In this document: positions 5,278 to 62,363 of the stretch, in pieces
How positions within the stretch are numbered: position 1 is the stretch's first letter
Layout: each line of letters begins with the position of its first letter
Source: Escherichia phage FL20
Length of the DNA: 64,000 nucleotides
Sequence record: PP400781
Direction: 5' to 3' (one strand)
Notes under the pieces: model-generated
The model's input: the letters and a program-made list of their open reading frames with translations, nothing else
Told to the model about the DNA's origin: nothing
Databases searched by the model: none
Position numbers and translations under genes: made by a program

Positions 5278-5311
5278 AATATATTCCTCAATGTTTTGTC
5301 TTGATGGGAGT

Positions 5312-5340
5312 ATCTTACTACTCCCTTAATCCGGTGTCAA
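5312..5340 (-). promoter_or_regulatory. Sigma70-type early promoter with dyad spacer
   Basis: Minus strand reads TTGACA-ccggattaagggagtag-TAAGAT; inverted repeat gggagta/tactccc spans the spacer and -10. Confidence 0.55.
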
Positions 5341-5346
5341 CTATTT

Positions 5347-5502
5347 TTAAATTTCTTCTACAGTAAAGTCTTCAATGTTATTGTGCTCGGAGAACGTTGC
5401 CAGACCAGCATTCCATGCATCATCCTCAGAGAAGAATACACCGTAACGTTCATATCCTTTAGCGCCTTCAAATTTAACCATTAATTTGTGAGTATGTTTC
5501 AT
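5347..5502 (-). CDS. Hypothetical small protein (51 aa)
   Basis: ATG at 5500-5502 preceded by AAGGAGAATCAAA leader; the longer track ORF 5347..5565 would run through its own promoter. Confidence 0.4.
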   Translation of the reverse strand: MKHTHKLMVKFEGAKGYERYGVFFSEDDAWNAGLATFSEHNNIEDFTVEEI

Positions 5503-5533
5503 TTTGATTCTCCTTCGTTGTCTTGATGAGTTC

Positions 5534-5562
5534 ATTGTAGGGGATCGGCGATCCCCTGTCAA
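5534..5562 (-). promoter_or_regulatory. Sigma70-type early promoter with GATC-containing palindromic spacer
   Basis: TTGACA-ggggatcgccgatcccc-TACAAT on minus strand. Confidence 0.55.
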
Positions 5563-5572
5563 CAACTATTTT

Positions 5573-5785
5573 TTAATTTTTACCCGCTCGTGCATTAATA
5601 AGCATTTTCTGAATAGCCATGATCTGGCTTACTGCTTCTTCTTTACGTTCTTGCGTGATAACGTGACCAGATTCCGCAAACTCTCCAGCAACTTCTTCTA
5701 CGATCTCGCGAACTTGAGAACGTCCAAAGATGCGGTTTCCTTCGTAGCTCATAAATTCTGTTACTACTTGCTCGATAGATTTCAT
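5573..5785 (-). CDS. Hypothetical small protein (70 aa)
   Basis: ATG at 5783-5785 with AGGAGAATCAC RBS; track ORF extends upstream through the promoter. Confidence 0.45.
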   Translation of the reverse strand: MKSIEQVVTEFMSYEGNRIFGRSQVREIVEEVAGEFAESGHVITQERKEEAVSQIMAIQKMLINARAGKN

Positions 5786-5814
5786 GTGATTCTCCTTTCG
5801 TTTGGTATGGGAGT

Positions 5815-5843
5815 ATAATACTACTCCCATGCCTTTACGTCAA
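5815..5843 (-). promoter_or_regulatory. Sigma70-type early promoter with dyad spacer
   Basis: TTGACG-17-TATTAT; gggagta/tactccc inverted repeat over the -10. Confidence 0.5.
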
Positions 5844-5846
5844 CAA

Positions 5847-6008
5847 CTATTTTAAATTATTTTCGACCTTCACCCATTCCGCGTATTCTTGCGCGGCTAC
5901 TTTCGGATTTAGTCCGTCTTCGTACATTGCATCAAGTAATTCTTTGTCGGTGGGCTTATACCCTAGATAAGCCTCCACCTGATTTTTCCAAATTTTATAC
6001 CAGTTCAT
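5847..6008 (-). CDS. Hypothetical small protein (53 aa)
   Basis: Internal ATG at 6006-6008 just after the stop of the upstream ORF. Confidence 0.35.
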   Translation of the reverse strand: MNWYKIWKNQVEAYLGYKPTDKELLDAMYEDGLNPKVAAQEYAEWVKVENNLK

Positions 6009-6012
6009 ATTA

Positions 6013-6216
6013 TCACCAGTCAAGAGCGCGTGTCTCTGCGTCTTCCCATGCTTGGTCCATAACAGCCTTGAAAACATATTCTAAAGTATCATCTTTAGAG
6101 AATCCGAAGACCTTAGACGGGATATCTTCAATTGCTACTCCAGCAACTTCTGCATTACGCGCTTGGCAATAATGCAACTCTAAGTTATCGAGATAGCGAC
6201 CGCCTAATTTCTCCAT
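6013..6216 (-). CDS. Hypothetical small protein
   Basis: 67-aa ORF; promoter TTGACT-17-CATAAT at about 6318-6344 upstream. Confidence 0.4.
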   Translation of the reverse strand: MEKLGGRYLDNLELHYCQARNAEVAGVAIEDIPSKVFGFSKDDTLEYVFKAVMDQAWEDAETRALDW

Positions 6217-6356
6217 ATCATCCCAGCATTCCAGTAACCTACTTTATTTGCAATTGCTAACACTTTGCTGTTTTCGTTGCACATCTTTGATTCTCCTTTT
6301 GTTTGGTGTGTGTGTATTATGCAATGTTGGATTCTGTAAGTCAACAACTTTTTAAA

Positions 6357-6384
6357 ATAAAAAAGCCGACCACACGGATCGGCT
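6357..6384 (-). terminator. Rho-independent terminator
   Basis: Minus strand: agccgatccgtgtggtcggct hairpin followed by tttttatttt. Confidence 0.6.
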
Positions 6385-6394
6385 TAATAATCAG

Positions 6395-6790
6395 TTACTT
6401 ACTAAATTTCTTTTTGGCTTCGTCTACCGCATGAGATGCCAGTACCGCAGCCGCATGTGCACTTTTATCTGTGTTGCAGAGAACGCCCAGATAAACATCA
6501 CGCCAAAGTTTAATCATCTCGTAGATCATATCAATATCATTTTCTTGTTTGTTGGCGATGCTATTCGTCGTTATCTGGTAAGGTAACGGCTTGATCTGTA
6601 CTGGTTCCGCCATCGGGCTAATCGGTTTCGGATCAGTCATAATAGGTGCTGTTGTGGGTGGTGTTTTCCATACACCATTATTCCACGGTTTAATCGTTGT
6701 GTCGTAAAGTTTATAAGGATTTTTGTCTGGGTCAACCATCCATGCATGATGAGTACCCAAACCATTTGAAGTGATGCGTCGTTCAGTCAT
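6395..6790 (-). CDS. Hypothetical protein
   Basis: 131-aa ORF; Pro/Thr-rich middle. Confidence 0.45.
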   Translation of the reverse strand: MTERRITSNGLGTHHAWMVDPDKNPYKLYDTTIKPWNNGVWKTPPTTAPIMTDPKPISPMAEPVQIKPLPYQITTNSIANKQENDIDMIYEMIKLWRDVYLGVLCNTDKSAHAAAVLASHAVDEAKKKFSK

Positions 6791-6793
6791 AAT

Positions 6794-6997
6794 TTATTTC
6801 CTCTCTGAAAATTCTTTCATCAAGCTGTCGATCTTTGCTCTGTGTTCTGGTGTGTTTGTCATCTCTGCTAATTTGCTCAGAGATTCACTGGTGATCCGGT
6901 TGGATTCTTCCAGTGTTTCAACGACAATTGGCACAATCTTTTTATTGTTGTACAGAAATGCAATATAACCGCCTTCTGGATATTCTTTCATAATCAA
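6794..6997 (-). CDS. Hypothetical small protein
   Basis: 67-aa ORF; start overlaps the gp52 stop. Confidence 0.4.
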   Translation of the reverse strand: MIMKEYPEGGYIAFLYNNKKIVPIVVETLEESNRITSESLSKLAEMTNTPEHRAKIDSLMKEFSERK

Positions 6998-8340
6998 CCC
7001 TTCTTAAGTTCTTTAAGATCTTTCTTATATTCCTTCATTGCGGTCGTCTTTGTCCAATACTCATATTCACTATGATGTTTATCGGCATCTTTGACCAGTC
7101 GATCATACTCTTCTTGAGTAACGCTATACAATGGCATAGAAACTAGCTTATCGGCGTATGGACGCAGTTTTTCATGTCCATTGATGGATTGCATTACCTC
7201 GGCCTTTTTCTTTCCCTGTAGCTCGATTTCGCCCTTAATTACGCGATCGATAAATTCGGCTTTAGCCATTGCATAATTGTATGCTTCCAGCGTTTCCGCT
7301 TGCATCAATTCAATGCGTTTATCGACATACACTAATCGGATTTCGACGAATCGACGGATCAGATCGCTCGCTTTCTCGAATACTTCTACTAAACCACGTT
7401 CATTAACCACTACGATATTCTGGGCTACTAACTGCGTTAGTTTAAAATCCTTCATGATTTGCTCATGTCGAGCGGATTCATCTTCGCTTTTGAAATAATC
7501 GCGTTTCAGTGTTACTTCAAATCTGAATCCATCCTTAGAGCAACGGTCATTATATGAGACAATCAGATCTTTTTCTTCCAGTGCATCCAGTACCGCTACA
7601 TATTCTTCACGGTCGAACTTATAAGGAACTTCTGATATTGTCAGTTTAGTCTTGCCGTTTAGTTCATATGTACCCTCAAGAATCACACCATCGCGATCAT
7701 CTCGCGGGATAACTTTACCCGTGAATTTCGGGAATTGAACATTAGGTTCTTTATCCAGTTTTCCGGCAAGTGCTAGCTCTGTGCATTCAATGAGGCTTTC
7801 CAGTGAATGCGGTAAAATGTCAGTTTTATACCCTGAAGCAATACCACTAATACCATTAGCCAATACCATTGGCACAACTGGCAAGTAGAACGCTGGCGGG
7901 ATGTGTTCCAGATCTTCGTGCTTAGGTGCGCAATTCATATCTTTATAGATTTTAAAGAAGTTTTCATGCACACGAGCAAAGATATAACGTGCCGCTCCTG
8001 CTTTCTGGACTAAACGAGATCCGAAGTTACCTTGACCGTCAAGCAGTGGAGTATTATTGCTCCATGTATTCGCCATGAGTGATCCGGCTTCTACGGCATT
8101 AGTTTCGCCGTGGTGATACCCCAATTCAGCAACACCAGATCCAATATCTGCCATCTTACGGAATTTCTTACGGTCGCCTTTACTCTTTTGCAAAGCACAT
8201 TCCATAACAAAGCGTTGCACTGGTTTAAGCCCATCCACTAATTGAGGAATCCCGCGTTCCTCGGCAGAATAGATCGCATATTCCTTAGCTTCATTATGTA
8301 CAATGCTTTCAAGGCTGCGGTAAGTAACTGATTTATTCAT
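6994..8340 (-). CDS. 52: DNA topoisomerase II medium subunit gp52 (GyrA-like)
   Basis: GLKPVQRF, DGQGNFGS, ARYIFAR, YLPVVP motifs collinear with T4 gp52; ATG at 8338-8340 with GAGGTGA RBS (track start 8355 is GTG). Confidence 0.9.
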   Translation of the reverse strand: MNKSVTYRSLESIVHNEAKEYAIYSAEERGIPQLVDGLKPVQRFVMECALQKSKGDRKKFRKMADIGSGVAELGYHHGETNAVEAGSLMANTWSNNTPLLDGQGNFGSRLVQKAGAARYIFARVHENFFKIYKDMNCAPKHEDLEHIPPAFYLPVVPMVLANGISGIASGYKTDILPHSLESLIECTELALAGKLDKEPNVQFPKFTGKVIPRDDRDGVILEGTYELNGKTKLTISEVPYKFDREEYVAVLDALEEKDLIVSYNDRCSKDGFRFEVTLKRDYFKSEDESARHEQIMKDFKLTQLVAQNIVVVNERGLVEVFEKASDLIRRFVEIRLVYVDKRIELMQAETLEAYNYAMAKAEFIDRVIKGEIELQGKKKAEVMQSINGHEKLRPYADKLVSMPLYSVTQEEYDRLVKDADKHHSEYEYWTKTTAMKEYKKDLKELKKG

Positions 8341-8347
8341 CTTCACC

Positions 8348-8710
8348 TCATACACGCTTACAAATCACATTCTTTACTTTATCAGATTTATCAGCCCAAT
8401 CCAATAGCCATTTTAACGGAAGGATTGACACAATAAACGGGGCAGCAATCAAAGCAAACATGATACACCTGATAATCAGGAAAACGCAAGTGACAAAACT
8501 AGCGATAGTGATCCCGACAAAACAAAATACCATAGAAAACAGAGTAATGATATAGAAAGGCCAGAATACCCACTCCCGCATCTTAACGCCTTTGTATTCT
8601 CTGAATTGCTTAAAATCTACAAACAACTCTCGGATAGACGCGTACAGGACCGAAAAATCATCTTTCATTGCTCTGAATGAGCAATCTTCTATTTTAGAAT
8701 GACCTAGCAT
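8348..8710 (-). CDS. Hypothetical membrane protein
   Basis: 120-aa ORF with two or three hydrophobic helices (WVFWPFYIITLFSMVFCFVGITIASFV...). Confidence 0.45.
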   Translation of the reverse strand: MLGHSKIEDCSFRAMKDDFSVLYASIRELFVDFKQFREYKGVKMREWVFWPFYIITLFSMVFCFVGITIASFVTCVFLIIRCIMFALIAAPFIVSILPLKWLLDWADKSDKVKNVICKRV

Positions 8711-8712
8711 TA

Positions 8713-9006
8713 TTAACCGCCTTTAACCATTGATACAGGAATTGTTTTCTGATTTGTGTATAAGTGGCCTACTTCAATTTTTTCTTGAATCACCACGACG
8801 TTACAATATCCACTGTCTTTAAGTTTTCTGATAATGACTCGCTTTTGTTCGTCGGTGATAGGATTGACTGTTCTCACCAATTCACCGCAAATAATAGCAC
8901 CATCTTTACAATTACCAGTAACTTTCATGCTACGACCGTGAACAACAACCACGTCACCGTAAATCACATTTTCGTCGTCGTATTTGGTAATAACCGTGAC
9001 CGTCAT
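8713..9006 (-). CDS. Hypothetical protein
   Basis: 97-aa ORF. Confidence 0.4.
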   Translation of the reverse strand: MTVTVITKYDDENVIYGDVVVVHGRSMKVTGNCKDGAIICGELVRTVNPITDEQKRVIIRKLKDSGYCNVVVIQEKIEVGHLYTNQKTIPVSMVKGG

Positions 9007-9051
9007 AATGTATTCCCTCTAAGAAAGGCCGCGCAAAGCGGCCTATGTTGA

Positions 9052-9384
9052 TTATTGTTCTACAGTATAACCGTTGTTTTCAAGCCATGCAATAACAATC
9101 TTTTCGCCAATTTCATCGAGCATTTCATCAGCGCCATATTCTTTAATGAAAGTCGATGGATCATTATTGCTTACTACGTGCTGGATCACAACATGTTCAG
9201 GAATTGCGTCTAGTAGTTCGCTATGATCATACTCATTAACGATATCTTCAACACTAACATTATTAACCAAATCAACATCATCCATAGTCACAGTAACGCG
9301 ACCGGACGGACGCAATGAATATTGGCTACTTTCAACTTCAACATGTGCACTTTCGCAAGTAACTTTCATATCAACCATAATCAA
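9052..9384 (-). CDS. Hypothetical acidic protein
   Basis: 110 aa, strongly Asp/Glu-rich. Confidence 0.45.
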   Translation of the reverse strand: MIMVDMKVTCESAHVEVESSQYSLRPSGRVTVTMDDVDLVNNVSVEDIVNEYDHSELLDAIPEHVVIQHVVSNNDPSTFIKEYGADEMLDEIGEKIVIAWLENNGYTVEQ

Positions 9385-9392
9385 TTCCTCTG

Positions 9393-10385: not shown

Positions 10386-10447
10386 AGTATTCATTCCTCT
10401 ATTAGTTGGGCGACTATTGCCGCCCGATTCACATCATTATACCAGAA

Positions 10448-10579: not shown

Positions 10580-10590
10580 AATATCACCTC

Positions 10591-12705: not shown

Positions 12706-12719
12706 AATATAATCCTCAC

Positions 12720-13379: not shown

Positions 13380-13436
13380 CCTTTTGTTTTCGATGGGGAC
13401 ATTATGATATATCCCCGATCCAGTGTCAACAGATTT

Positions 13437-13770: not shown

Positions 13771-13798
13771 ATTATAGAGAATCTCCCTTGTATGTCAA
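13771..13798 (-). promoter_or_regulatory. Sigma70-type early promoter
   Basis: TTGACA-16-TATAAT followed by palindrome gggagtctccc. Confidence 0.5.
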
Positions 13799-20017: not shown

Positions 20018-20085
20018 AATAAAAAGCCTCCAATCTTTCGACGGGAGGCATAATAAAACCATGATAGAGTATTGTCAACTAATTT

Positions 20086-26953: not shown

Positions 26954-29632
26954 TTAAATGTCAAACAGGTCAGTCAGAGAAGCAACTTTTTCATATTGCA
27001 GCTTTGCAGCCGTGGTAATGTTCTCCAGTGGTTTGACGAAAGTCTTATTAAACAACAAAGGCCAGTCTAACCACTTTAACACCTCTGATTCAATTTCTGG
27101 AGGAATACGAGTACCGGACAACCAACCAAAACAGATTTCTCCAAACGGATTTCGGTCTTTCAGCGGTACAATCATAACCTTCTCGCCCTCACGAATCGGA
27201 TCTAGTCCGAATTTTCGAGCATTACGATTATAACACAATACACTCTTAACCGCATACGGACAACCCTTAATCGGATACCCGTTTGAATCGCTGTATTTCT
27301 GTAGGTTGTTTGCAGATGATACCGCAGCAACATCAAGATAGTCAAGTTTTCTAAATTCTTGCTCAAAAATACCGTAGTATTCCTGCAATGACTCTTCACC
27401 TTCCTGCAACATACGGCGAATACATTCTTTCAGTGATTTCTGACATGCTTTAGGGGTGGAGCTACGTTGCGTTTCCAAGCCCATGATTTTTAGCTTAGGT
27501 TCAGCAAAGCGCGTTCCTTCCATATCCCAAACATTAAGAGCATAACGCTTTTTACCAGTCCAGAATCCACCGATACCAGCAGATTTCAACGGGGGACCAG
27601 CAATTGCCTCACGGTCCATAAACATCAAGTGCTCATAGTTGTTCATGTACTCGCATAACTCGCGATATCCCTTGTCGATAATAGGTTCCATTCGATGTTT
27701 ACCGAAATTATCAAGGAAGTCAACAAGTTTTTCGGTATCGTCGAAACGATCTTCCCCGCCAACCTTATCAACAACATTGTTAACCAGCACATAAACGGAG
27801 TCAGTATCACAATAACGAACATATGCAAAATCGGTTGTTCCGCAAAGCTCGTTTAAGTATTCGTTAATCTTACGCTCAATCCATTGAATTGCAAGCTGAC
27901 CGAACAGTGTGATCGCACTAGCGTTACGGAGATCATAAAAACGGAATTTAGGATTCCCCAACGCACCATAAAGGGAGTTGATCAAAACTTTTCGAGAAAG
28001 CTGGTTTGTATTGCACAAGATCGACTCGTCTTTACATTCTTCCAGCAATTTCTCTAAGGCATCTTTACTTAATTCAGAAAGCATCGATTTAAACGCTTCA
28101 TCAAAGTCGTGACGCACTTCAACGCTATAGCTAATGGTTCCCCCATAAACATGATTTTCATCGTGTAGAATCGCTTTACAGAGTTCAGCATTGCGATCAC
28201 ATGCCAACATCATATTTTTGTACTGCTTGCGCTGATCAAATACCTTTTTAATCTCAATCGGTACGATACCGTGAATATCTTTTCTATACATCCATCCGTT
28301 AGGCGAGCAAGAATACTCATCACTCGGACGTGGTGCAGTTTTATTGATATACTCGTGCATCGGTGCAGCATCAAAAGACCCAGCGATTGTTTCAGGCGAA
28401 ATATTAACCTGTCGAATAATAGATGGATACAGACTTGTTAAGTCAAAGCTCATCATCCAACGGTAAGCATTTGGCACAGGTTCTTTTACGAATGCGCCCG
28501 GATAAGTCTGCTTAGGCTGTATCTTATTTTCCGGTACTACTTTACCCTCAGCTTTCAGAGATCCGAAGATAATAGCATCCCATACTTTCATCGGGTTATA
28601 AACATGGTTAAATTTAATCTTTGCATAGAAACATAGGCTATACACCAGATCAATAAAGCCACGCTTTTTATCAATCGCCAGCACACGGTCAACGTCGCCG
28701 ATGTTATAATCGATGTAAAGTTGATGATTGTCATCACGCAATTTCTTTAACGGACCATCATAATCAACCTTACCGATTCCTGTCTCATATTCAGCAACAT
28801 AATCTAACGCATATGTTGGTTGAGTCGTAAAGCTAAATTTCTTGTACAGGTCAATATAATCAAGGCTTTCGATCCCCATGATCGTAAATGCTTCACGCTC
28901 GTTGCCAAAATCATCCTGTGAGATTCTGGATTTAATCTTACCGCACGGGCTTAGACGGTTAGCGGTTCTACTTCCGAACTTATTACTGATACGTTTAATG
29001 ATATATGGAATATCGAATGTTTCTGTGTTCCAGCCAGTGAAACCAACGGGTCGGTTTTCCTCAAAGAATCGGATGTATTCTAACAGCAATTCATCTTCTG
29101 TGTCATAGACGTTATAAACAACGCGCTCTACAATATCAGGTCGAAGAATAGACTTGCTTGCTTCCCAGATTTCACCGTTTTTTCCTTTCAAGTCAAATAC
29201 AAAGAAACGATCATGTACGGAATCATAATGCGTAATTGCATCGATAGGATATTTCGCTTCTTCTGGTTTAGGAAATTCCGGTGCAGTGACCTCGATATCA
29301 ACCCATGCTACACGGATTTTATTTCGGTCATATCGAATCTCGCCTTTATACGTATCAGACAGATAGGAGATGATAAAATCATCCATCCCTAGTGCCTCTT
29401 GCCCCATTTCTCCCATCTTTTTACGCCATTTGTTGGCCTCGTTCATAGATGGGAATTTTTTAGCAATGCAAGGCTTGCCGTAGATATCTTTATAATTCGT
29501 AACCATACCAGGCGCGGCATGATGAAATAAAGTTGGTGTATATTCAACGTAACGCTCTTGTTCTTGTCCAGCATCATCAATATAACGCTCGTAGATCTTA
29601 TCACCTACTCGCTCACATGACAGAAAATACAT
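26954..29632 (-). CDS. 43: DNA polymerase gp43 (family B)
   Basis: 892 aa from ATG 29630-29632 (GGAG RBS); exo motifs (DIE, YNIGDVD), pol motifs SFDLTSLYPSIIRQ, KVLINSLYGALG, YCDTDSVY, KKRYALNVWDMEG collinear with T4 gp43. Confidence 0.95.
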   Translation of the reverse strand: MYFLSCERVGDKIYERYIDDAGQEQERYVEYTPTLFHHAAPGMVTNYKDIYGKPCIAKKFPSMNEANKWRKKMGEMGQEALGMDDFIISYLSDTYKGEIRYDRNKIRVAWVDIEVTAPEFPKPEEAKYPIDAITHYDSVHDRFFVFDLKGKNGEIWEASKSILRPDIVERVVYNVYDTEDELLLEYIRFFEENRPVGFTGWNTETFDIPYIIKRISNKFGSRTANRLSPCGKIKSRISQDDFGNEREAFTIMGIESLDYIDLYKKFSFTTQPTYALDYVAEYETGIGKVDYDGPLKKLRDDNHQLYIDYNIGDVDRVLAIDKKRGFIDLVYSLCFYAKIKFNHVYNPMKVWDAIIFGSLKAEGKVVPENKIQPKQTYPGAFVKEPVPNAYRWMMSFDLTSLYPSIIRQVNISPETIAGSFDAAPMHEYINKTAPRPSDEYSCSPNGWMYRKDIHGIVPIEIKKVFDQRKQYKNMMLACDRNAELCKAILHDENHVYGGTISYSVEVRHDFDEAFKSMLSELSKDALEKLLEECKDESILCNTNQLSRKVLINSLYGALGNPKFRFYDLRNASAITLFGQLAIQWIERKINEYLNELCGTTDFAYVRYCDTDSVYVLVNNVVDKVGGEDRFDDTEKLVDFLDNFGKHRMEPIIDKGYRELCEYMNNYEHLMFMDREAIAGPPLKSAGIGGFWTGKKRYALNVWDMEGTRFAEPKLKIMGLETQRSSTPKACQKSLKECIRRMLQEGEESLQEYYGIFEQEFRKLDYLDVAAVSSANNLQKYSDSNGYPIKGCPYAVKSVLCYNRNARKFGLDPIREGEKVMIVPLKDRNPFGEICFGWLSGTRIPPEIESEVLKWLDWPLLFNKTFVKPLENITTAAKLQYEKVASLTDLFDI

Positions 29633-31631: not shown

Positions 31632-31696
31632 ATAATCACCTCTCACAAATTACATCATTAAAACGGGGAGTATTTACACTCCCCACAAACATTATA

Positions 31697-32383
31697 TTAG
31701 TCGGTGTAGCTGGAGTCAAGGTCACACGCGATCATGTAAGATACGGTTTCACTTGCCAGCCATACAGCCTTACGGCGAGTGAAGCTCAGTTTGTAATCGC
31801 CGAAGTCGGTAGCAACCAGTTTCATGTTATCTTTACGAATAAAGAAATGGAAGTCTGCGGTTCCGGCATATTCGCCCATGTCAAGACAAAACATCTCATT
31901 CGGATTATTTTTGTCAATCTCTTCCCAACCTTTGATCATCAGACGACCATCAATCGGTAGAAATTCAAGGCGATCCACTTTAAGCTGATTGCTCATTTTC
32001 ATAAGCTGTTTCAGATCGTCGTTGCTCAGTTCGTAATCTACATCGCTTGCGGGTGGAGTAACTCGGCCTTTCGGTGATACGATAGCAGCAGCACTAGCAC
32101 CAGGATAATTAATTTTCAGACGATCATTAGACACACGAATGTTTCCGGTGCGGTCATCAACCGTAATATCTGCTTCATCGCCTACCAGATTCAGAATACC
32201 CAGGAAAGAGTTAAGATCATAGATCCCGATTTCGTGTTCCAGTTCTTGATTCAGAGTCGCTTCACCATATACAACGTTTGTCATGTTTTTGGTGATTAGG
32301 ACGTTTCCTTTTTTCAGGATGATACCTGGGTTAATAGCGGAAAAGTTTTTCAGGGTAGCAATGGTTTCTTTAGTCAGTTTCAT
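31697..32383 (-). CDS. 45: Sliding clamp gp45
   Basis: 228 aa from ATG 32381-32383 (same length as T4 gp45); N-terminus MKLTKETIATLKNFSAINPGI matches T4. Confidence 0.9.
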   Translation of the reverse strand: MKLTKETIATLKNFSAINPGIILKKGNVLITKNMTNVVYGEATLNQELEHEIGIYDLNSFLGILNLVGDEADITVDDRTGNIRVSNDRLKINYPGASAAAIVSPKGRVTPPASDVDYELSNDDLKQLMKMSNQLKVDRLEFLPIDGRLMIKGWEEIDKNNPNEMFCLDMGEYAGTADFHFFIRKDNMKLVATDFGDYKLSFTRRKAVWLASETVSYMIACDLDSSYTD

Positions 32384-36456: not shown

Positions 36457-36482
36457 AACAACCTCCAATCAATTTTTAGAGA

Positions 36483-36510
36483 GTATAACGGGGATTTCTC
36501 CCCGCGTCAA
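36483..36510 (-). promoter_or_regulatory. Sigma70-type early promoter with dyad spacer
   Basis: TTGACG-cggggagaaatccccg-TTATAC. Confidence 0.5.
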
Positions 36511-43887: not shown

Positions 43888-43930
43888 ATTTGATTCTCCT
43901 GTAAAGTTGTATCTCGTCTTGATGAATATA

Positions 43931-43958
43931 GTATAGGGGATCGCGAGATCCCCGTCAA
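43931..43958 (-). promoter_or_regulatory. Sigma70-type early promoter with GATC palindromic spacer
   Basis: TTGAC(G)-gggatctcgcgatcccc-TATACT. Confidence 0.5.
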
Positions 43959-45053: not shown

Positions 45054-45121
45054 GTTGTCCTCTCGTTGTTTTCGATGTGAGCATTATACATTAGCTAATC
45101 ATGTTGTCAACACCCCAAAAC

Positions 45122-45148
45122 GAAAAAGCCGACCCTTTCGGATCGGCT
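45122..45148 (-). terminator. Rho-independent terminator downstream of nrdD
   Basis: Minus strand: agccgatccgaaagggtcggct hairpin then tttttcg; same hairpin module as at 57735-57762. Confidence 0.55.
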
Positions 45149-47555: not shown

Positions 47556-47584
47556 AATATAATCCTCTCGTTGTTAAGTGGGAG

Positions 47585-47613
47585 TATTATAGCATACTCC
47601 CTTCGCATGTCAA
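47585..47613 (-). promoter_or_regulatory. Sigma70-type early promoter with dyad spacer
   Basis: TTGACA-tgcgaagggagtatgc-TATAAT; arms gggagtat/atactccc. Confidence 0.55.
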
Positions 47614-48788: not shown

Positions 48789-48819
48789 AATATAATCCTC
48801 TCGTTGTTTAGACGGGAGT

Positions 48820-48848
48820 ATCTTACTACTCCCGTTTCATCATGTCAA
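48820..48848 (-). promoter_or_regulatory. Sigma70-type early promoter with dyad spacer
   Basis: TTGACA-17-TAAGAT; gggagta/tactccc inverted repeat. Confidence 0.55.
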
Positions 48849-49698: not shown

Positions 49699-49730
49699 TG
49701 TTGATTCTCCTTCTTGATTAGATGGGAGTA

Positions 49731-49758
49731 TTTTACTACTCCCATTTCTTATTGTCAA
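49731..49758 (-). promoter_or_regulatory. Sigma70-type early promoter with dyad spacer
   Basis: TTGACA-17-TAAAAT; gggagta/tactccc. Confidence 0.5.
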
Positions 49759-52920: not shown

Positions 52921-52989
52921 AATATAATCCTCACATCGTTCATTTGATGCGGTCATTATATGATAACCGCATTTTCATGTCAACAGTTT

Positions 52990-53629: not shown

Positions 53630-53658
53630 AGTATAGGGGATACGTGATCCCCTGTCAA
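53630..53658 (-). promoter_or_regulatory. Sigma70-type early promoter with dyad spacer
   Basis: TTGACA-ggggatcacgtatcccc-CTATAC. Confidence 0.5.
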
Positions 53659-56126: not shown

Positions 56127-56156
56127 ATTTGATTCTCCTTAGTTGGTATGGTTATC

Positions 56157-56184
56157 ATTATACGGGGATTTCTCCCCGTGTCAA
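56157..56184 (-). promoter_or_regulatory. Sigma70-type early promoter with dyad spacer
   Basis: TTGACA-cggggagaaatccccg-TATAAT. Confidence 0.55.
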
Positions 56185-56187
56185 CAA

Positions 56188-56463
56188 TTAAATGATCTCT
56201 GCTTCACCGTTAAGGAAGAAAGACCATGTTTTGTTAGGATAACGAAGCGCCCATGATTCAGCAGTTTTAACACCAGCTTCGAACAATTGACGGCTGGTTA
56301 CTTTAGCCATACCATCTTCGATGGCAACGTTTTCAATAATCATCGGGTACTTAGCGCCACGCATGAAACCGAAGCCAGCGGAAGATTTGATGATTTTAAC
56401 AGTTGCCATTTTTGATTCTCCTAGAAAGTGTCGTGTTTCGATGGGTGTATTATGCAATAACAC
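56188..56463 (-). CDS. Small paralog family member C
   Basis: Internal start MATVKIIKSSAGFGFMRGAKYPMIIEN...; AGGAGAATCAAAA leader. Confidence 0.4.
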   Translation of the reverse strand: MLLHNTPIETRHFLGESKMATVKIIKSSAGFGFMRGAKYPMIIENVAIEDGMAKVTSRQLFEAGVKTAESWALRYPNKTWSFFLNGEAEII

Positions 56464-56495
56464 CGGATCGCTGTCAACACTTTCTAAGAAAAATT

Positions 56496-57127: not shown

Positions 57128-57462
57128 TTGTAACCCTCCTCTGAAAGCACATCCCAGATCGTTGAGTCAAGGTGCATTAAATTCCACATAATAGAGTCAT
57201 AACTACCGAAGCCAGAAGTAAAAATTACATCACACTGGCGATAGGTCTTATGAAAATCGGTGGCTGTCTCTGCATCAATCGGCATATCGTCACCTGAAAG
57301 CACCAGACATTTAAGAATCATAACTCTGTTAGCCGTTGGCGCTTGCTTAGTCTTTTCAGCATATTTTTCGATGATCCGTTTTGCCTTTTCTTCTTTGATA
57401 CGTCCAGACCAAATCCGGTTTCGGTATTGATTCATAATAATTTCAATCACATCATTTTGCAT
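57124..57462 (-). CDS. Hypothetical protein
   Basis: 112-aa ORF. Confidence 0.4.
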   Translation of the reverse strand: MQNDVIEIIMNQYRNRIWSGRIKEEKAKRIIEKYAEKTKQAPTANRVMILKCLVLSGDDMPIDAETATDFHKTYRQCDVIFTSGFGSYDSIMWNLMHLDSTIWDVLSEEGYK

Positions 57463-57661
57463 TCTTCACGGTCTCCATAATTGTTTTGTAAGCCAGCTTA
57501 AGATGATCACCGAAAAACTTTGCAGTGTTACCCTTCTGATCGCGGAGCATGGTTTCTACGATCTCATCGGCAGTAACAATTTCTCCTTTCTTTGCTGCAT
57601 GTTCTACCATATACTTCAAAGTTTCTTCGGAAGCAAGTGCTGCGGCTACTGGATTAATCAT
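57452..57661 (-). CDS. Hypothetical small protein
   Basis: 69-aa ORF; promoter TTGACA-17-CATAAT at about 57691-57719 and AGGAGAATCAAA leader. Confidence 0.4.
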   Translation of the reverse strand: MINPVAAALASEETLKYMVEHAAKKGEIVTADEIVETMLRDQKGNTAKFFGDHLKLAYKTIMETVKNAK

Positions 57662-57734
57662 TTTGATTCTCCTTTGTTGTCGATGTGTGCATTATGCTAT
57701 ACCCTATTCCGGTTGTCAACACCTAAAAACGAAA

Positions 57735-57762
57735 AAGCCACCCTTTCGGATGGCTTTTTGAT
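57735..57762. terminator. Bidirectional rho-independent terminator hairpin
   Basis: agccaccctttcggatggct flanked by A-run on the 5' side and T-run on the 3' side, so either strand reads hairpin followed by U-tract. Confidence 0.55.
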
Positions 57763-57989
57763 TATATTTTATTCACGTCCATTTGTATAGTAGTGTTTGA
57801 ATCGACCTTTGCTAAACTAGTTAAACATAGTAACCAATTCACCATCCCTTTCCAATGATAACACTTCCTCGTCTTAGACGGGTCTTCTGATTCGGCAGTA
57901 ATTGAACACGCGAAAGTATGAGGAAGCCAAATAGTTGTGTTGATGCTAGTATTCTTTTACTTCTGGTATGTATCCAAATGTGACTAACA

Positions 57990-58388
57990 TTAAGCCAATC
58001 GAGTGAGTTTATAAATTGTTTTAAAGCATAGAGCTTTGATATCGTCTAAAACGCTCTGTAACGAGCTATCAACATCATTATAAATCTCACTAGCCATTTG
58101 CGTTAACTCTTGCAAATAGGCAATTTCGCTCATCTCCTTGCGGACGACCAACGTTGGCTGATAACGACCAGTGATCCCAATATTGGTTTCAGTGAAATCA
58201 TCAACCAATTCTTGCATTTCAAGATAGAACTCTTCTAGAGCCTTATGTTTTGCATAAGATCCAGGACCAGTTACTCCAAAATGCGCAGAATGCATATAAG
58301 TAACACTCATCAGACATTCACCGATAAAGCGGTCAACTTTATTAGCTTTCCCCTCTTCGGACGTCTTTCGAAAATCACTGAATTTCAT
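57990..58388 (-). CDS. Hypothetical protein (132 aa)
   Basis: ATG at 58386-58388 with GGAGAAT RBS; followed by about 230 nt with no ORF. Confidence 0.4.
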   Translation of the reverse strand: MKFSDFRKTSEEGKANKVDRFIGECLMSVTYMHSAHFGVTGPGSYAKHKALEEFYLEMQELVDDFTETNIGITGRYQPTLVVRKEMSEIAYLQELTQMASEIYNDVDSSLQSVLDDIKALCFKTIYKLTRLA

Positions 58389-58677
58389 GTTCTCTATTCT
58401 CCATATTATGCAACATAACAAACTGTTGTGCGGCATATTCCCCCATAATAAAACACTGCTTAGAATCCATACATTTACTACGAGCATACATCTTCATAAT
58501 ATGGGCATGAAATTTCTGGCTGGTTTCAATGGAAGGAGATATTTTGTTTACATATACTATCATTGCACCGTCGAAATAATCAGTAAAGTCACCAGTTGGA
58601 TCATATTGATCAGCACTGACACTTCCGACCGCAGTCAAGCATATTGCCGCTGTTAGAGTTTTACGAATAAATGACAT
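58375..58677 (-). CDS. Secreted/periplasmic small protein
   Basis: 100 aa; signal peptide MSFIRKTLTAAICLTAVGSVSA. Confidence 0.45.
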   Translation of the reverse strand: MSFIRKTLTAAICLTAVGSVSADQYDPTGDFTDYFDGAMIVYVNKISPSIETSQKFHAHIMKMYARSKCMDSKQCFIMGEYAAQQFVMLHNMENREHEIQ

Positions 58678-58745
58678 AAGTCATTCCCCCAGATTAAAAA
58701 TATTCAGTTATATTTATAATCTGGGGCTTTATTTATGATTAACTC

Positions 58746-59342
58746 TTATTTGGTAGTACCGTCAATAAAATGTTTACGACACACAGAGACATATTTATCC
58801 TCTGCACCAACTTCTATTTGAGCACCATCGCGAATAACATTACCCTCTTTATCTACACGAAGGACCATTGTTGCTTTCTTGCCACAATGACAAATACCCT
58901 TCATTTCGACCAGTTTATCAGCAAATGCCATTAATGCCGCAGATCCTTCAAATAGATTGCCCTGAAAGTCGGTGCGAAGGCCATAGCACAGTACAGGGAT
59001 ATTTGCATCATCAACAAGCGCACACAAGCCTAAAACATGCTCTTTAGTCATAAATTGGGCTTCATCTACAAATACAGCATCAGGACGCCATCGATCCGGT
59101 CTACGCTTACCTAATGATTCACGATAAACCAAGTCGAAAAGGTCATCCGATTTAGTGAAGGTGATCGCTGGAGCACTTAGGCCAATTCGGGAAACAACTT
59201 CACTTTCTGAATCTCGATTATCAATCGCTGGCTTAAGAATTAATGCTCGCATATCACGTTCGGTATAGTTATAAGCACTTTGTAACAGAGAAGTTGATTT
59301 GCCAGCGTTCATAGATGCATAGTAGAAATATAGTTGCGCCAT
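58746..59342 (-). CDS. tk: Thymidine kinase
   Basis: 198 aa; P-loop ASMNAGKST, VFVDEAQF, C-terminal zinc ribbon CHCGKKAT...VCRKHF; collinear with T4 Tk. Confidence 0.9.
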   Translation of the reverse strand: MAQLYFYYASMNAGKSTSLLQSAYNYTERDMRALILKPAIDNRDSESEVVSRIGLSAPAITFTKSDDLFDLVYRESLGKRRPDRWRPDAVFVDEAQFMTKEHVLGLCALVDDANIPVLCYGLRTDFQGNLFEGSAALMAFADKLVEMKGICHCGKKATMVLRVDKEGNVIRDGAQIEVGAEDKYVSVCRKHFIDGTTK

Positions 59343-59635
59343 TAATTAATCTCCAAAAATCCAGCAAGACCTAAACCGATATAAGTCCAGATACAAAGGA
59401 AAAAGAAACAAACACCCATAGCAAAGATAAATCCGCGTAGTGTCTTTGGATAACCTACCCAATATTCCCGACCATCTTCTAACCGGATCAGCTTATTTCC
59501 TTGAGAGTCTATATCAATTACAACATGTTTATTTCTGGATTGTAACAGATATTGCTTGACAATCTCAATACCCGCCATAATAACAATAACGAAATTGAAA
59601 GTCCACATAACAAGGTTAATGGTAGTCTCAAGCAT
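59342..59635 (-). CDS. Hypothetical membrane protein
   Basis: 97 aa with two or three TM helices. Confidence 0.4.
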   Translation of the reverse strand: MLETTINLVMWTFNFVIVIMAGIEIVKQYLLQSRNKHVVIDIDSQGNKLIRLEDGREYWVGYPKTLRGFIFAMGVCFFFLCIWTYIGLGLAGFLEIN

Positions 59636-59870
59636 TTTCTATCACCTCCACCCAATCAGGTGTTTCCTGAAAGACTCCTTCGCCTTCATGATGGTCGCAA
59701 CCTTTATTGCTGCAATACATCCACCAATCCCACATTCCCCACGGTAAACGCTGCATATCGTCGTTACAGCAAGTGAAGATGATAGGCCAACCACATCTAA
59801 AACATCGGCAGTTTTCTTTCATGTGAGCGGTATTAGGCTTCTTCATAGATGACTCCAATATAATCGACAT
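59628..59870 (-). CDS. Cys/His-rich small protein (putative zinc-binding)
   Basis: 80 aa; CRCFRC...CC...C...C...H. Confidence 0.4.
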   Translation of the reverse strand: MSIILESSMKKPNTAHMKENCRCFRCGWPIIFTCCNDDMQRLPWGMWDWWMYCSNKGCDHHEGEGVFQETPDWVEVIENA

Positions 59871-60073
59871 TTACATTTAGGGCAATGCGGTTCTTTAATA
59901 TAATACCCGTCTGTCTTTGGAACACTAACAGGAGCGGTTTTTATATTGTATTCGGTGAAACAACGAAAACAAGTTACGTTTTCTACAGACTGACGTTTCA
60001 CCCAATCACCGGAATATAGATCATTTTTATTTGTCATATTCAACCACCACAATGTTAATGTCTGGAGTAGCAA
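59843..60073 (-). CDS. Cys-rich small protein (putative zinc ribbon)
   Basis: 76 aa; CFRCF...CPKCKC. Confidence 0.4.
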   Translation of the reverse strand: MLLQTLTLWWLNMTNKNDLYSGDWVKRQSVENVTCFRCFTEYNIKTAPVSVPKTDGYYIKEPHCPKCKCRLYWSHL

Positions 60074-60482
60074 TATTAATGATCTCTTCTACACATTCCC
60101 ACTCAAGGCCACCGATACCGCAACCGATTTTAGGAATATAGAAAGGCTGTGTAGCACCTTCAAAAACATCATTGAGAGTCTCAAATCCTTTCAGGATAGC
60201 ACCATATTCAGCATTTGGACCCGGTCGGAATTGGGTATAGAGATTCACCCCGCACCAGTTATAACCATTAACTTGATGCGTCCAGACACTAAACCCACCC
60301 AGCTTTTCGACCTTACCGCGAGAAGTTTGCTTGTCAATCTCTAACGCTTGCGGGAACTCTTTCGCGATCTTTGCAGCAATACCAGCGCCCATAGTATGAA
60401 AACAATTACAACCATGAATTAAATGACCGTTTCCTTGTTTAAACAGGGCGATGAGATCGCCCTTTACAGTATCAATAATCAT
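60027..60482 (-). CDS. Macro-domain-like protein (ADP-ribose binding/processing fold)
   Basis: 151 aa; N-terminal HGCNCFHTMGAGIAAKI (position of the macro-domain NAAN-GGGV loop) and C-terminal IPKIGCGIGG (position of the phosphate-binding glycine loop). Confidence 0.45.
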   Translation of the reverse strand: MIIDTVKGDLIALFKQGNGHLIHGCNCFHTMGAGIAAKIAKEFPQALEIDKQTSRGKVEKLGGFSVWTHQVNGYNWCGVNLYTQFRPGPNAEYGAILKGFETLNDVFEGATQPFYIPKIGCGIGGLEWECVEEIINIATPDINIVVVEYDK

Positions 60483-60497
60483 AATATAAACCTCTCA

Positions 60498-60857
60498 TTA
60501 GTCACGGGAAGACAACCCAGCCATAAAACGGCTTAACAGTGTGTCGCGATAAGCAAAGCATAATTGCTTATCAGGGGCAGTATCACACAGGTTACGTTTT
60601 GTTTTAGCAAAGCTGGCAATACTCAGATCCCACGCTCGATTTTTTCGTTTTTCGTCTCGACCTTGTTTGTATGCTTCATCAAGTTCGAGCGCGATAAAAT
60701 CACTACACATGTTATCATCATCACAGAAAGTTTTAATGATCTTTTTGTTGATCTCAAATCCTTTGTATTCGAACTTTGGATAAGGGCGCTCATTACTAGC
60801 AAGCGCACCAGCAGAGAACATCATAGCAATCATAGCAATTATTGTCAACTTTTTCAT
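60498..60857 (-). CDS. Secreted/periplasmic protein with 4 Cys
   Basis: 119 aa; signal peptide MKKLTIIAMIAMMFSAGALA. Confidence 0.45.
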   Translation of the reverse strand: MKKLTIIAMIAMMFSAGALASNERPYPKFEYKGFEINKKIIKTFCDDDNMCSDFIALELDEAYKQGRDEKRKNRAWDLSIASFAKTKRNLCDTAPDKQLCFAYRDTLLSRFMAGLSSRD

Positions 60858-60864
60858 ATATTCC

Positions 60865-61455
60865 TCAATAGCGTTTAGTCTTAAGAATGCCTTTACTCTT
60901 TAGATGGTTAGCCTTTTTTAGTACGTCATCAGCATAACCTAATCCGGCTTTATAGTTCCATCCAGCATTGTAAGAAGCTAGCGCGAGTCGGATATTACCG
61001 TTTCGAACATCCAGCCAGTATGCTAACTCATCCATCGCGTAGAATGCAGAAACCTCGCGATTCATGATAAAGTTGATAGTCTGGCGATCACTCATTTTAA
61101 CACCGCGCTTTGCATTTTTCGCTTTCACCGTTTTAAGGTAATTTTGAAATAATCCATAAGCATGATGATTTTTCTTTGGTGCTAAGTTTGCACCCGCGCT
61201 TGATTCTTGCCATGCGATACCCGCCAGGATGTGACCTAAACCCTTTCCGTTATAGCGAATATTCGGATGGTACTTTTTCAACTTACCGCTTTTCTCGAAT
61301 TGCTCGCCGTATTGATAGGCGAAATGTAAATTATCTAGTTGGTGTGCTGTAAAGTTGTCTATCGGCGCTTTTTTGATCGGTGCGCTAGTCGATGCGTGTG
61401 TAGCACCAACGGCTAGTGACAGACTCAATACTATCGCTTTTAGAACTTTTAACAT
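60865..61455 (-). CDS. Secreted lytic-transglycosylase-like (SLT domain) protein
   Basis: ATG at 61453-61455 with AGGAG RBS; signal peptide; catalytic-type E-S motif (WQESSAG), GLFQ and AYNAG signature motifs. Confidence 0.5.
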   Translation of the reverse strand: MLKVLKAIVLSLSLAVGATHASTSAPIKKAPIDNFTAHQLDNLHFAYQYGEQFEKSGKLKKYHPNIRYNGKGLGHILAGIAWQESSAGANLAPKKNHHAYGLFQNYLKTVKAKNAKRGVKMSDRQTINFIMNREVSAFYAMDELAYWLDVRNGNIRLALASYNAGWNYKAGLGYADDVLKKANHLKSKGILKTKRY

Positions 61456-61540
61456 TAATTTCTCCTGTTTGGCTTGACTTTCTGATTCCATAATATAGCC
61501 CTATCACCAGAAAGTCAAGCATTAATTTAACCAATTTCCA

Positions 61541-61963
61541 TTATTGGTCTACCTTCAAAACAACCGCCGACATTTTACCCGCCAGTCGTTTTGGATTCTC
61601 TATAATCATTCGGCAGCATAGACCGTGATATGGCTTACCCTCTTCGATTAGATCTACTGTCATCCCGATCCACATGTTACCGTCAGTAATTTCTAATCGA
61701 TTAGGTCGGTCTTCCATTTTCAGGAAGTCGAAGATCTCCGGCAAACGAGTTTCTATCTTATTGAATAGTTCCATTGTCTTATGTTCATCGATATGACGAT
61801 CGGTTAGACGGTCGATCATATGCGGACTAAAGCGAATGAAAATATACTCACCGTAACCATCATTCAAGCACTTTTCTTTGATCTGCGCATTGGTTTTGCG
61901 CATTTCGGTTTCGAAGAATCTACGCAGCTTACTACGGCGAACATGTACGTTAATTGTTTCCAT
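61541..61963 (-). CDS. regB: Endoribonuclease RegB
   Basis: 140 aa from ATG 61961-61963; RRSKLRRFFETE, RLEITDGNMW, CRMIIENPKRLAGK match T4 RegB. Confidence 0.85.
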   Translation of the reverse strand: METINVHVRRSKLRRFFETEMRKTNAQIKEKCLNDGYGEYIFIRFSPHMIDRLTDRHIDEHKTMELFNKIETRLPEIFDFLKMEDRPNRLEITDGNMWIGMTVDLIEEGKPYHGLCCRMIIENPKRLAGKMSAVVLKVDQ

Positions 61964-61967
61964 TTTA

Positions 61968-62303
61968 TTATCCTTTCTTAAACAAATTGCGAAGCCAGTA
62001 TACAAACGGGATTTCTTTAAACTTGAACTTGTCAATAGTTAATTCTTTAGTAGCAAGATGAATACCATAAGCATCATGTGTAACTATATGCCATTTTCTA
62101 TAGTCCAAATGTGAACAACCGTCTGGATCTAGGTTAATAAGAGTTTCTCGCTCACTAGGATTATTTTTCCACAATTTTGTAATAGGATCGCACATAATTC
62201 GACCTAGCGTACCATGAATAATCTCACAACGGTAAAGTTTTCCAGCAGTGAGATAGGCGCACCCGTCATAGTCGGTATAAACAAACACTTCTTTAACACT
62301 CAT
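61968..62303 (-). CDS. Hypothetical protein (111 aa)
   Basis: ATG at 62301-62303 with AAAGGAG RBS. Confidence 0.4.
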   Translation of the reverse strand: MSVKEVFVYTDYDGCAYLTAGKLYRCEIIHGTLGRIMCDPITKLWKNNPSERETLINLDPDGCSHLDYRKWHIVTHDAYGIHLATKELTIDKFKFKEIPFVYWLRNLFKKG

Positions 62304-62334
62304 TTTAATACTCCTTTGTTGTTTCGATGGGGGT

Positions 62335-62363
62335 ATATTACTACCCCCGATCATGTGTGTCAA
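62335..62363 (-). promoter_or_regulatory. Sigma70-type early promoter with dyad spacer
   Basis: TTGACA-cacatgatcgggggtag-TAATAT; arms gggggta/taccccc. Confidence 0.5.

Follow-up and report, generated by a model that had tools for sequence, protein, structure and literature searches.

Promoter-early stem-loop (PeSL) cassettes were named in the phages RB49 and phi1 by Arbiol et al. (2010, Genome Biol Evol 2:140; PMC2839356). In a PeSL as described there, an AT-rich region containing the upstream gene's stop codon is combined with a consensus sigma-70 promoter, a stem-loop rich in a poly-G and then a poly-C run, a Shine-Dalgarno sequence and a start codon, the hairpin being most commonly placed between the -35 and -10 elements or over the -10 element (PMC2839356). 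The stem-loops of RB49 and phi1 take the form Gn-loop-Cn, while those of T4 and PST are located immediately ahead of the promoter (Comeau et al., 2014, Genome Biol Evol 6:1611; PMC4122927). PeSL211/210 of RB49 is the only stem-loop that has been assayed as a terminator, cutting lacZ read-through as strongly as rrnB T1, and PeSL206/205 yielded about 13,000 Miller units as a promoter (PMC2839356). Here, we analyzed a 64,000-nucleotide (nt) stretch of DNA from Escherichia phage FL20 (sequence record PP400781; the window), in which a preliminary description had pointed out GC-rich dyads, i.e. inverted repeats, embedded in early promoters. We find that these promoter-embedded dyads are the known PeSL cassettes, a confirmation and not a discovery, and that pairing of their arms is under selection.

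Several lines of evidence identify the elements as PeSLs. RB49 PeSL211/210 (TTGACAGGGGATCACGTATCCCCTATACT) and the cassette at 53630-53658 of the window match without a difference over about 85 nt, while the flanking genes are unrelated, and PeSL206/205 carries a GGGGATC-ggt-GATCCCC dyad that is matched by the GGGGATC family of the window. The promoters conform to a sigma-70 consensus (TTGACA-N16-18-TATAAT-like) with an A/T-rich upstream region, and a stable Gn-loop-Cn structure is found in the promoter (14 embedded dyads) or next to it (five promoters with a flanking terminator). As in the published cases, the cassettes are dispersed repeats tied to indels and gene shuffling in hyperplastic regions: the same cassette recurs at non-orthologous loci, the gene content beside PeSLs differs between relatives, and region 3000-8000 of the window aligns in two to four pieces to many of them. 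Genus, composite layout (stop codon, AT-rich region, TTGACA-N17-TATAAT, Gn-loop-Cn, Shine-Dalgarno sequence, ATG) and the commonest hairpin placements are shared with RB49 and phi1, with essentially no difference. The element can therefore not be regarded as new, having already been described with promoter and terminator functions (PMC2839356, PMC4122927). To the published picture, our analysis adds statistics, the conservation among orthologues, the mutual exclusion with terminators, the weakness of the U-tracts, inverted loops and the presence of the design beyond T4-like phages.

Judging from sequence similarity, the window belongs to a Krischvirus, i.e. an RB49-like or "pseudo-T-even" coliphage, as 7-kb and 5-kb pieces of it showed 92-98% identity to about 60 Krischvirus genomes, including RB49, Phi1, GEC-3S, Brandy and JK32; for RB49, Phi1 and Brandy, identity was 94-98%. 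Nearly all of its genes lie on the minus strand and comprise early and replication genes as well as many small open reading frames (ORFs) of unknown function. Both RegB and Dam are encoded by the phage. A scan of the window against Rfam found no family.

The preliminary description had defined the promoters by the motif TTGAC(A/G)-N16/17-TA(T/A)AAT. This literal motif is indeed far more frequent than expected, with 10 minus-strand matches against 0.22; its strict -10 element, by contrast, fits only three of the 11 dyad promoters first listed, the others reading TAAGAT, TATTAT, TACAAT, TATACT or TAATAT. We relaxed the -10 element and required a downstream Shine-Dalgarno sequence and start codon, which resulted in a curated list of 26 intergenic minus-strand early promoters. 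A GC-rich dyad is embedded in 14 of them. All 11 dyads named previously are present on the minus strand, each having been listed by its low-end coordinate, and three are added here: 52947-52972 (ATGCGGT...ACCGCAT), 13395-13416 (GGGGA...TCCCC) and a weak one at 56444-56464. The UP regions of the early promoters contain 60-84% A+T, and the ATG lies 54-71 nt after the start of the -35 element.

Two placements recur. Spacer-type dyads (consensus GGGGA...TCCCC) occupy the whole spacer, reaching from the final base of the -35 element to the first T of the -10 element. In straddle-type dyads (GGGAGTA-gtaaga-TACTCCC and variants), the loop contains the -10 element, and the end of the 3' arm lies 5-8 nt past this element. 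The arms fall into at least nine families and are separated by 3-12 nt, and their register relative to the -10 element is not constant.

The dyads are in excess of what chance would produce. The RNAfold energies of the core regions, summed over the 26 sites that an automatic filter assigned to intergenic DNA, amounted to -211 kcal/mol, compared to -91 +/- 10.8 kcal/mol for shuffled sequences (500 shuffles with the -10 element fixed; minimum -122). For 23 intragenic look-alike sites the corresponding values were -111 and -83.5 kcal/mol; two of these 23 are actually intergenic promoters, and without them the look-alikes show essentially no excess. Dyads are thus far more common in early promoters than expected by chance, and the comparison with shuffled controls came out in favor of the preliminary description. 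As RNA, 13 of the 14 embedded hairpins have energies of -9 to -14.5 kcal/mol, the site at 56444-56477 reaching only -4.1 kcal/mol. With arms of 7-9 bp, the same hairpins reach -5.6 to -7.5 kcal/mol as DNA, i.e. the RNA forms are about twice as stable.

We then compared the promoters with their orthologues, taken from homologous regions of ten named GenBank relatives and two IMG/VR contigs; the GenBank relatives were used since anchoring by a flanking 27-mer in IMG/VR retrieved only two contigs. Across 13 sequence sets of related phages, orthologous promoters were clustered and the minimum number of substitution events per alignment column was determined. Dyad stems accumulated nine events in 236 columns (0.038) and the -35 hexamer one event in 91 columns (0.011), compared to 16 events in 42 columns for dyad loops (0.38), 36 events in 79 columns for the other spacer positions of dyad promoters (0.46) and 52 events in 392 columns for the spacers of dyad-less promoters (0.13). 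Stems thus vary as little as the -35/-10 hexamers (0.04 events per column), and about tenfold less than loops and the remaining spacer. They carry fewer events than loops plus other spacer positions (9/236 vs 52/121; Fisher P = 7.5e-20) and fewer than dyad-less promoter spacers (9/236 vs 52/392; P = 7e-5).

Compensatory changes are present in the stems. In a set of 29 unique straddle-type dyads, pairing holds for 89% of cells and both sides have changed in three pairs; their covariation score of 0.083, compared to 0.047 after shuffling, was reached by none of 500 shuffles. At the fourth of the seven core pairs, 25 of these dyads have A-U, three G-C and one G.U, and the dyad at 62329-62348 represents an A-T to G-C compensated variant of GGGAGTA/TACTCCC. 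Orthologous stems exhibit G-C to T-A and C-G to T-A replacements. The stem at 5306-5325 has exchanged G-C for T-A in JK32 and carries G.T in Phi1, and in the dyad at 48812-48835 the pair next to the outermost one, which is the first beyond the GGGAGTA/TACTCCC core, is found as C-G, as C.A or, in Brandy, as T-A. The stem at 49722-49745 has changed from T-A to T.G in four relatives, the dyad at 56444-56464 lacks its outer pair in GEC-3S and Brandy, and the stem at 36489-36504 is unchanged across 11 sequences. Variation at 52947-52972 is confined to loop positions among 12 orthologues, and the loop of the 5539-5557 dyad reads GCC, GGC or GGT.

A scan of IMG/VR with altered arms led to the same picture. 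The pattern TTGACA-GGGGA-N4-8-TCCCC-TA retrieved 29 stretches, while the single-arm mutants GGGGA/TCGCC and GGCGA/TCCCC each retrieved none. The compensated double mutant GGCGA/TCGCC retrieved four stretches, and three of its five matches are promoter-like with a dyad in the spacer. Because stems are as conserved as promoter hexamers while loops vary freely, and based on the covariation and the arm-mutant scans, we conclude that pairing is under selection and that symmetry is maintained, not one fixed sequence. The compensatory arm variation noted in the preliminary description is thus real, among paralogues and orthologues as well as in IMG/VR. Of the two explanations it had offered, a structure or a dimeric binding site, selection on symmetry stands; a dimeric, sequence-specific site does not, since arms, spacing and -10 register all differ. 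A sequence-specific operator would be expected to present its half-site at a fixed spacing, and we rejected this candidate on account of the different arm families, the loops of 3-12 nt and the compensatory changes.

Some further features of the variation were observed. Spacers, either 5' of the dyad or in dyad-less promoters (for example 62341-62357 and 57697-57713), show 0.13-0.46 events per column, compared to 0.06-0.08 in untranslated regions (UTRs), and their changes between relatives resemble block replacements more than point mutations. Some hairpin loops occur as exact reverse complements between orthologues on unchanged stems: the loop at 43940-43943 is tcgc in three sequences and gcga in ten, the loop region at 53641-53647 reads cacCG in JK32 and CGgtg in RB49 and kvi, and the loop at 5547-5549 is gcc or ggc. 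These reversals suggest either that short segments between the arms were inverted or that flipped paralogues acted as donors in conversion. In an ECD7-like IMG/VR contig (L007), the orthologue of 48812-48835 has the 3' arm TACTACA in place of TACTCCC, a decay showing that individual dyads can be lost.

What, then, is the paired structure for? The position of the hairpin relative to the transcription start is instructive. The RB49 early-promoter logo has C at -3 to -1, consistent with mapped 5' ends (Nolan et al., 2006), and we placed the start sites according to this work and the standard spacing from the -10 element. In the window, the CCC at -3 to -1 coincides with the end of the straddle-type 3' arm. 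Measured from the end of the -10 element, 3' arms end either 5-7 nt before or 5-8 nt after it, i.e. at or before the expected start; therefore, transcripts of the promoter itself would lack the hairpin, which could form only in RNA continuing from the upstream gene. For 13 of the 14 dyad sites, the upstream stop codon is located between 18 nt upstream of the -35 element and its interior (at 53630-53658, it could not be read from the ORF map), and the hairpin starts 0-25 nt after this stop codon. At two sites, 47608-47613 and 48843-48848, the TGA stop of the upstream gene even lies inside the -35 element (T-TGA-CA).

Moreover, embedded dyads and canonical terminators exclude each other. A hairpin followed by a T-run was present in the same intergenic region in none of the 14 dyad promoters of the window but in five of the 12 dyad-less ones (P = 0.012), and over all fetched loci in one of 25 dyad promoters compared to 12 of 28 dyad-less promoters (P = 0.001). 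This distribution fits the published view that the stem-loop takes the place of a terminator or attenuator, nested in the promoter for space. On balance, we lean toward the idea that the hairpin arises solely in RNA that reads through from the gene upstream, that it would stop, attenuate or cap this RNA, and that all 14 dyads would act alike in spite of their weak U-tracts.

The dispersed cassettes are about 85 nt long, and each accommodates, in a gap of 54-75 nt between co-directional early genes, an A-rich UP region, a consensus sigma-70 promoter, a GC-rich hairpin, a conserved start region (CCC-A-TCGAAAC or TCAAGAC), a Shine-Dalgarno sequence and the ATG. According to this stop-signal model, the hairpin would act as RNA, terminating, attenuating or capping read-through transcripts only. 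Transcription from the cassette's own promoter would begin at or after the 3' arm, whose CCC would occupy -3 to -1, and the resulting messenger RNA (mRNA), being free of the hairpin, would escape termination. Nesting the hairpin in the promoter may thus be a compaction device, rendering a terminator invisible to its own promoter. Other PeSL subclasses follow the same logic, as their T-run hairpins begin 0-6 nt past the -10 element, which would place the start at or within the 5' arm; at 31665-31719, the expected start coincides with the 5' edge of the 5' arm. The anatomy, the excess, the selection on pairing and the complementarity with terminators derive from the present analysis, and promoter activity as well as the terminator activity of one dyad from the literature. 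A literature search returned no transcriptome or Term-seq data for RB49-like phages.

Several observations weigh against the stop-signal model. The 8 nt following an embedded dyad contain 0-4 U (median 1), while nine of the ten other intergenic hairpins of the window, which have similar energies, are followed by 4-7 U and one by 3 (23839 gap). By the textbook definition, most embedded dyads are hence not intrinsic terminators; they possess the GC-rich hairpin but not the U-tract. Experimental support exists for one dyad, from a lacZ reporter that does not tell termination apart from decay of the RNA. Inheritance of cassette subtypes, in place of functional equivalence, could also produce the mutual exclusivity. 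All nine arm families run from G to C (sign test, P = 0.004 if the families are independent), a polarity that a terminator leaves unexplained. Furthermore, the 30 nt downstream of the promoter (0.056) do not vary significantly more than the stems (0.038). Selection at the RNA level would tolerate G.U more readily than A.C. In favor of the model, the one-sided, pairing-preserving changes in the 7-bp core were three G.U and no A.C, but these are too few for significance; with the outer pairs included, two of which show C.A, the counts are three and two, again small (plus a T.G/C.A split at the terminator hairpin of 31665-31719).

The weak U-tracts bring up a variant to be taken seriously, in which the hairpin is no terminator but an RNA 3' cap, blocking 3'-to-5' exonucleases or marking a processing end and thereby stabilizing the mRNA of the upstream gene. 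The position just past the stop codon and the stable RNA hairpins suit a cap as well as a terminator, the missing U-tract suits it better, and mRNA processing is part of the biology of this phage, which has a RegB gene. In the published work, however, the reporter result was interpreted as termination, and the exclusivity with true terminators is compatible with either reading. We consider a pure cap unlikely. A role at the DNA level, in which a hairpin, a cruciform or simply a shared repeat turns PeSLs into recombination hot spots that shuffle small genes, the dyad being kept by gene conversion or mobility, would account for other features: near-identical PeSLs at non-orthologous loci, a hypervariable, mosaic loop and spacer 5' of the dyad (0.38-0.46 events per column), the exact reverse-complement loops (tcgc/gcga, cacCG/CGgtg, gcc/ggc), the hyperplastic region that is broken into two to four alignment pieces between relatives, and mini-circles with crossovers inside PeSLs, one of them in a loop (Arbiol et al., 2010; PMC2839356). 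Yet homology suffices for recombination without any dyad, and DNA hairpins of 7-9 bp are weak. Arms of this length extrude poorly at physiological supercoiling. As this explanation also leaves unaccounted for both the mutual exclusion of dyads and canonical terminators and the maintenance of pairing with different arms in unrelated phages, we regard it as rather improbable.

The dyad may alternatively tune or regulate the promoter as DNA, either as the site of a shut-off factor or as a GC block that sets open-complex kinetics or supercoiling sensitivity. It lies exactly within the RNA polymerase footprint, its G-run-then-C-run orientation is strict, GGGGA...TCCCC is common to the spacer-type dyads, and unrelated phages, jumbo phages among them, have the same spacer design; RB49-like phages lack MotA, no middle promoters are known in RB49, and a protein binding GGGG...CCCC has been speculated upon (Arbiol et al., 2010; PMC2839356). 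Against this idea, arms covary instead of being fixed, their spacing varies from 3 to 12 nt in two registers relative to the -10 element, no candidate binding protein has been identified, and 12 of the 26 early promoters do without a dyad, tending to have a terminator nearby. We therefore deem such tuning doubtful. In its broadest form, it would make the dyad a cross-lineage phage device on promoter DNA, a structure-dependent switch or the site of a factor that would govern strong sigma-70 early promoters in phages without MotA-type middle control, a proposal suggested by the footprint position, the G-then-C polarity, the missing U-tract and the recurring spacer-filling design with different paired arms, and one to which we likewise assign a low probability.

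Control of the promoters by Dam methylation of GATC sites in the arms, another proposal of the preliminary description, did not hold up. Dam is encoded by the phage (ORF 51362-50550) and GATC is present in six promoters, but eight GATC sites in 956 nt of promoter cores do not significantly exceed the 5.4 expected (P = 0.18), five of the eight stem from the single GGGGATC arm family, and most dyads are GATC-free. The three further sites lie in the spacers of the promoters at 62363, 56477 and 13429; that of the 62363 promoter, outside any stem, is replaced in six of the seven relatives compared and kept only by JK32, and that of the 56477 promoter is lost in four of ten relatives. In any case, host Dam would methylate promoter GATC sites. 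Based on the counts and the lack of conservation of the non-stem sites at the 62363 and 56477 promoters, we rejected Dam control, which we hold to be most improbable. In the whole window, GATC is over-represented (360 observed vs 226 expected by base composition); this is a phage without avoidance of the site of its own and its host's Dam.

The individual cassettes, all on the minus strand, are as follows. Five spacer-type PeSLs were found. The one at 5534-5562 (-35 at 5557-5562, -10 TACAAT at 5534-5539) has the dyad AGGGGATC-gcc-GATCCCCT at 5539-5557 with two GATC sites. That at 36482-36510 (-35 TTGACG at 36505-36510, -10 TATACT at 36482-36487) contains CGGGGA-gaaa-TCCCCG at 36489-36504, and that at 43930-43958 (-35 TTGACG at 43953-43958, -10 TATACT at 43930-43935) contains GGGGATC-tcgc-GATCCCC at 43936-43953. 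The PeSL at 53630-53658 (-10 TATACT at 53630-53635) has AGGGGAT-cacgt-ATCCCCT at 53635-53653, and the one at 56157-56184 (-10 TATAAT at 56157-56162) has ACGGGGA-gaaa-TCCCCGT at 56162-56179.

Among the straddle-type PeSLs, 5306-5340 (-35 TTGACA at 5335-5340, -10 TAAGAT at 5312-5317) displays GGGAGTA-gtaaga-TACTCCC at 5306-5325. At 5807-5843 (-35 TTGACG at 5838-5843, -10 TATTAT at 5815-5820), the dyad is ATGGGAGTA-gtatta-TACTCCCAT (5807-5830), and the same arms enclose gtaaaa at 49722-49745 in the PeSL at 49722-49758 (-10 TAAAAT at 49730-49735; ATGGGAGTA-gtaaaa-TACTCCCAT). The PeSL at 47580-47613 (-35 at 47608-47613, -10 TATAAT at 47586-47591) carries GGGAGTAT-gctata-ATACTCCC at 47580-47601, that at 48812-48848 (-10 TAAGAT at 48820-48825) carries ACGGGAGTA-gtaaga-TACTCCCGT at 48812-48835, and that at 62329-62363 (-10 TAATAT at 62335-62340) carries GGGGGTA-gtaata-TACCCCC at 62329-62348. 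The PeSLs absent from the preliminary description are also of this type: 13395-13429 (-10 CATAAT at 13401-13406) with GGGGA-tatatcataatg-TCCCC at 13395-13416, 52947-52983, in which the -10 TATAAT (52955-52960) lies in a 12-nt loop between ATGCGGT and ACCGCAT (52947-52972), and the weak 56444-56477 (-10 CATAAT at 56449-56454) with the 5-bp dyad GGTGT-tattgcataat-ACACC at 56444-56464 (-4.1 kcal/mol).

Five promoters have a flanking canonical terminator; an additional one, at 13798, has a hairpin with a 1-nt loop that fell outside the scan. In three of the five, the terminator hairpin and its T-run are directly upstream of a dyad-less promoter or upstream of it: 57691-57759 (hairpin 57732-57759, directly upstream; -35 at 57714-57719), 45083-45148 (hairpin 45127-45148; -35 at 45105-45110) and 6316-6385 (hairpin 6363-6385; -35 at 6339-6344). 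In the other two, the hairpin follows the promoter: at 31665-31719 (-35 at 31714-31719), GGGGAGT-gtaaat-ACTCCCC (31665-31684) and its T-run begin 6 nt past the -10 element, and at 20026-20078 (-35 at 20073-20078), GCCTCC...GGAGGC (20026-20049) and its T-run come right after it. The hairpin at 31665-31684 is clearly related in sequence to the straddle-type GGGAGTA-gtaaga-TACTCCC, and in the GenBank record of RB49 the -10 element of a hypothetical late promoter is placed in the loop of its counterpart (L002, 8134-8140). In the record of phage G2248, the counterpart of the PeSL at 49722-49758 is annotated as "putative transcriptional terminator". On the plus strand, a T-rich tail follows this dyad and was flagged as terminator-like by a consensus scan (49720-49747), and antisense tails are moderately T-rich at a few other straddle-type dyads. 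We rejected the idea of antisense terminators, as few dyads have T-richer plus-strand tails and most do not.

Most early promoters, with or without a dyad, share a start-region motif, C(C)ATCGAAAC or CATCAAGAC, 1-10 nt past the -10 element (for example 62320-62328, 57675-57685 and 45068-45078), which is common to promoters of jumbo-phage contigs (L027, L030, L031, L039).

The spacer-type design extends beyond RB49-like and T4-like phages (IMG/VR matches L021-L052). Among the matches are Serratia phage BF (L031, 632-656) together with related phages of Erwinia, jumbo phages of about 357 kb. A contig of 174 kb resembles, in patches, Salmonella phages of 350 kb such as Munch, other contigs encode a family-A DNA polymerase, RecT or RNA ligase, and a family of small environmental contigs has the design as well; further spacer dyads are found at L027 3983-4007, L023 3102-3126 and L050 1624-1648. 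In most matches, the -10 element directly follows the 3' arm and the downstream UTR contains a Shine-Dalgarno sequence and an ATG, and the complementarity is often longer than the bases imposed by the search pattern. Small environmental contigs with TTGACAGGGGAGATTATCTCCCCTAATAT had no match among annotated phages.

As a separate observation on the window, its DNA polymerase gene 43 (26954-29632; 892 residues) is uninterrupted, as in RB49, Phi1, Brandy and GEC-3S. In JK32 and kvi, the gene is interrupted by an ORF of about 825 nt (L006, 2265-6057; L011, 2841-6633), annotated as a NUMOD3 motif family protein in JK32 and as a hypothetical protein in kvi.

Taken together, a blind reading of sequence can rediscover a real, selected regulatory element, and our analysis adds quantitative support to a published PeSL model that rested largely on inspection and one reporter construct. 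Cassettes of roughly 85 nt that combine a strong promoter with an upstream stop signal would constitute self-insulating expression units, useful for annotation and engineering, and PeSL cassettes mark places of gene gain and loss in RB49-like therapeutic phages. Two points may deserve particular interest, i.e. the stop or cap action of a hairpin without a U-tract and the recurrence of the hairpin-in-spacer design in unrelated phages.

The embedded dyads resemble and differ from several other known systems. Like intrinsic terminators, they form GC-rich hairpins (6-9 bp, -9 to -14.5 kcal/mol) shortly after the end of a gene, and canonical terminators fill the equivalent place in other intergenic regions of the window; unlike these, embedded dyads are located within a promoter and lack a U-tract (median of 1 U in 8 nt). 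With the operators of dimeric repressors, such as lambda OR/OL and lacO, they share the position of a dyad within the -35/-10 region. Here, however, half-site sequence and spacing are not conserved, arms covary, there are dozens of sites with differing arms and no cognate repressor is known. Hairpin-form promoters are exemplified by the early promoters of the N4 virion RNA polymerase (vRNAP) and by Frpo of the F plasmid, in which the hairpin itself is recognized, by N4 vRNAP or by RNA polymerase on single-stranded DNA. In these promoters, as in the window, a short DNA hairpin belongs to a phage or plasmid early promoter; in the window, by contrast, the promoter is a full-consensus sigma-70 duplex promoter and half of the promoters are hairpin-less. 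Finally, small inversions of hairpin loops between inverted repeats are classically known from chloroplast non-coding DNA. The PeSLs are similar in that loops occur as reverse complements on unchanged stems, and they differ in the context, a phage promoter spacer, and in that conversion from paralogous PeSLs offers an alternative route to the same outcome.

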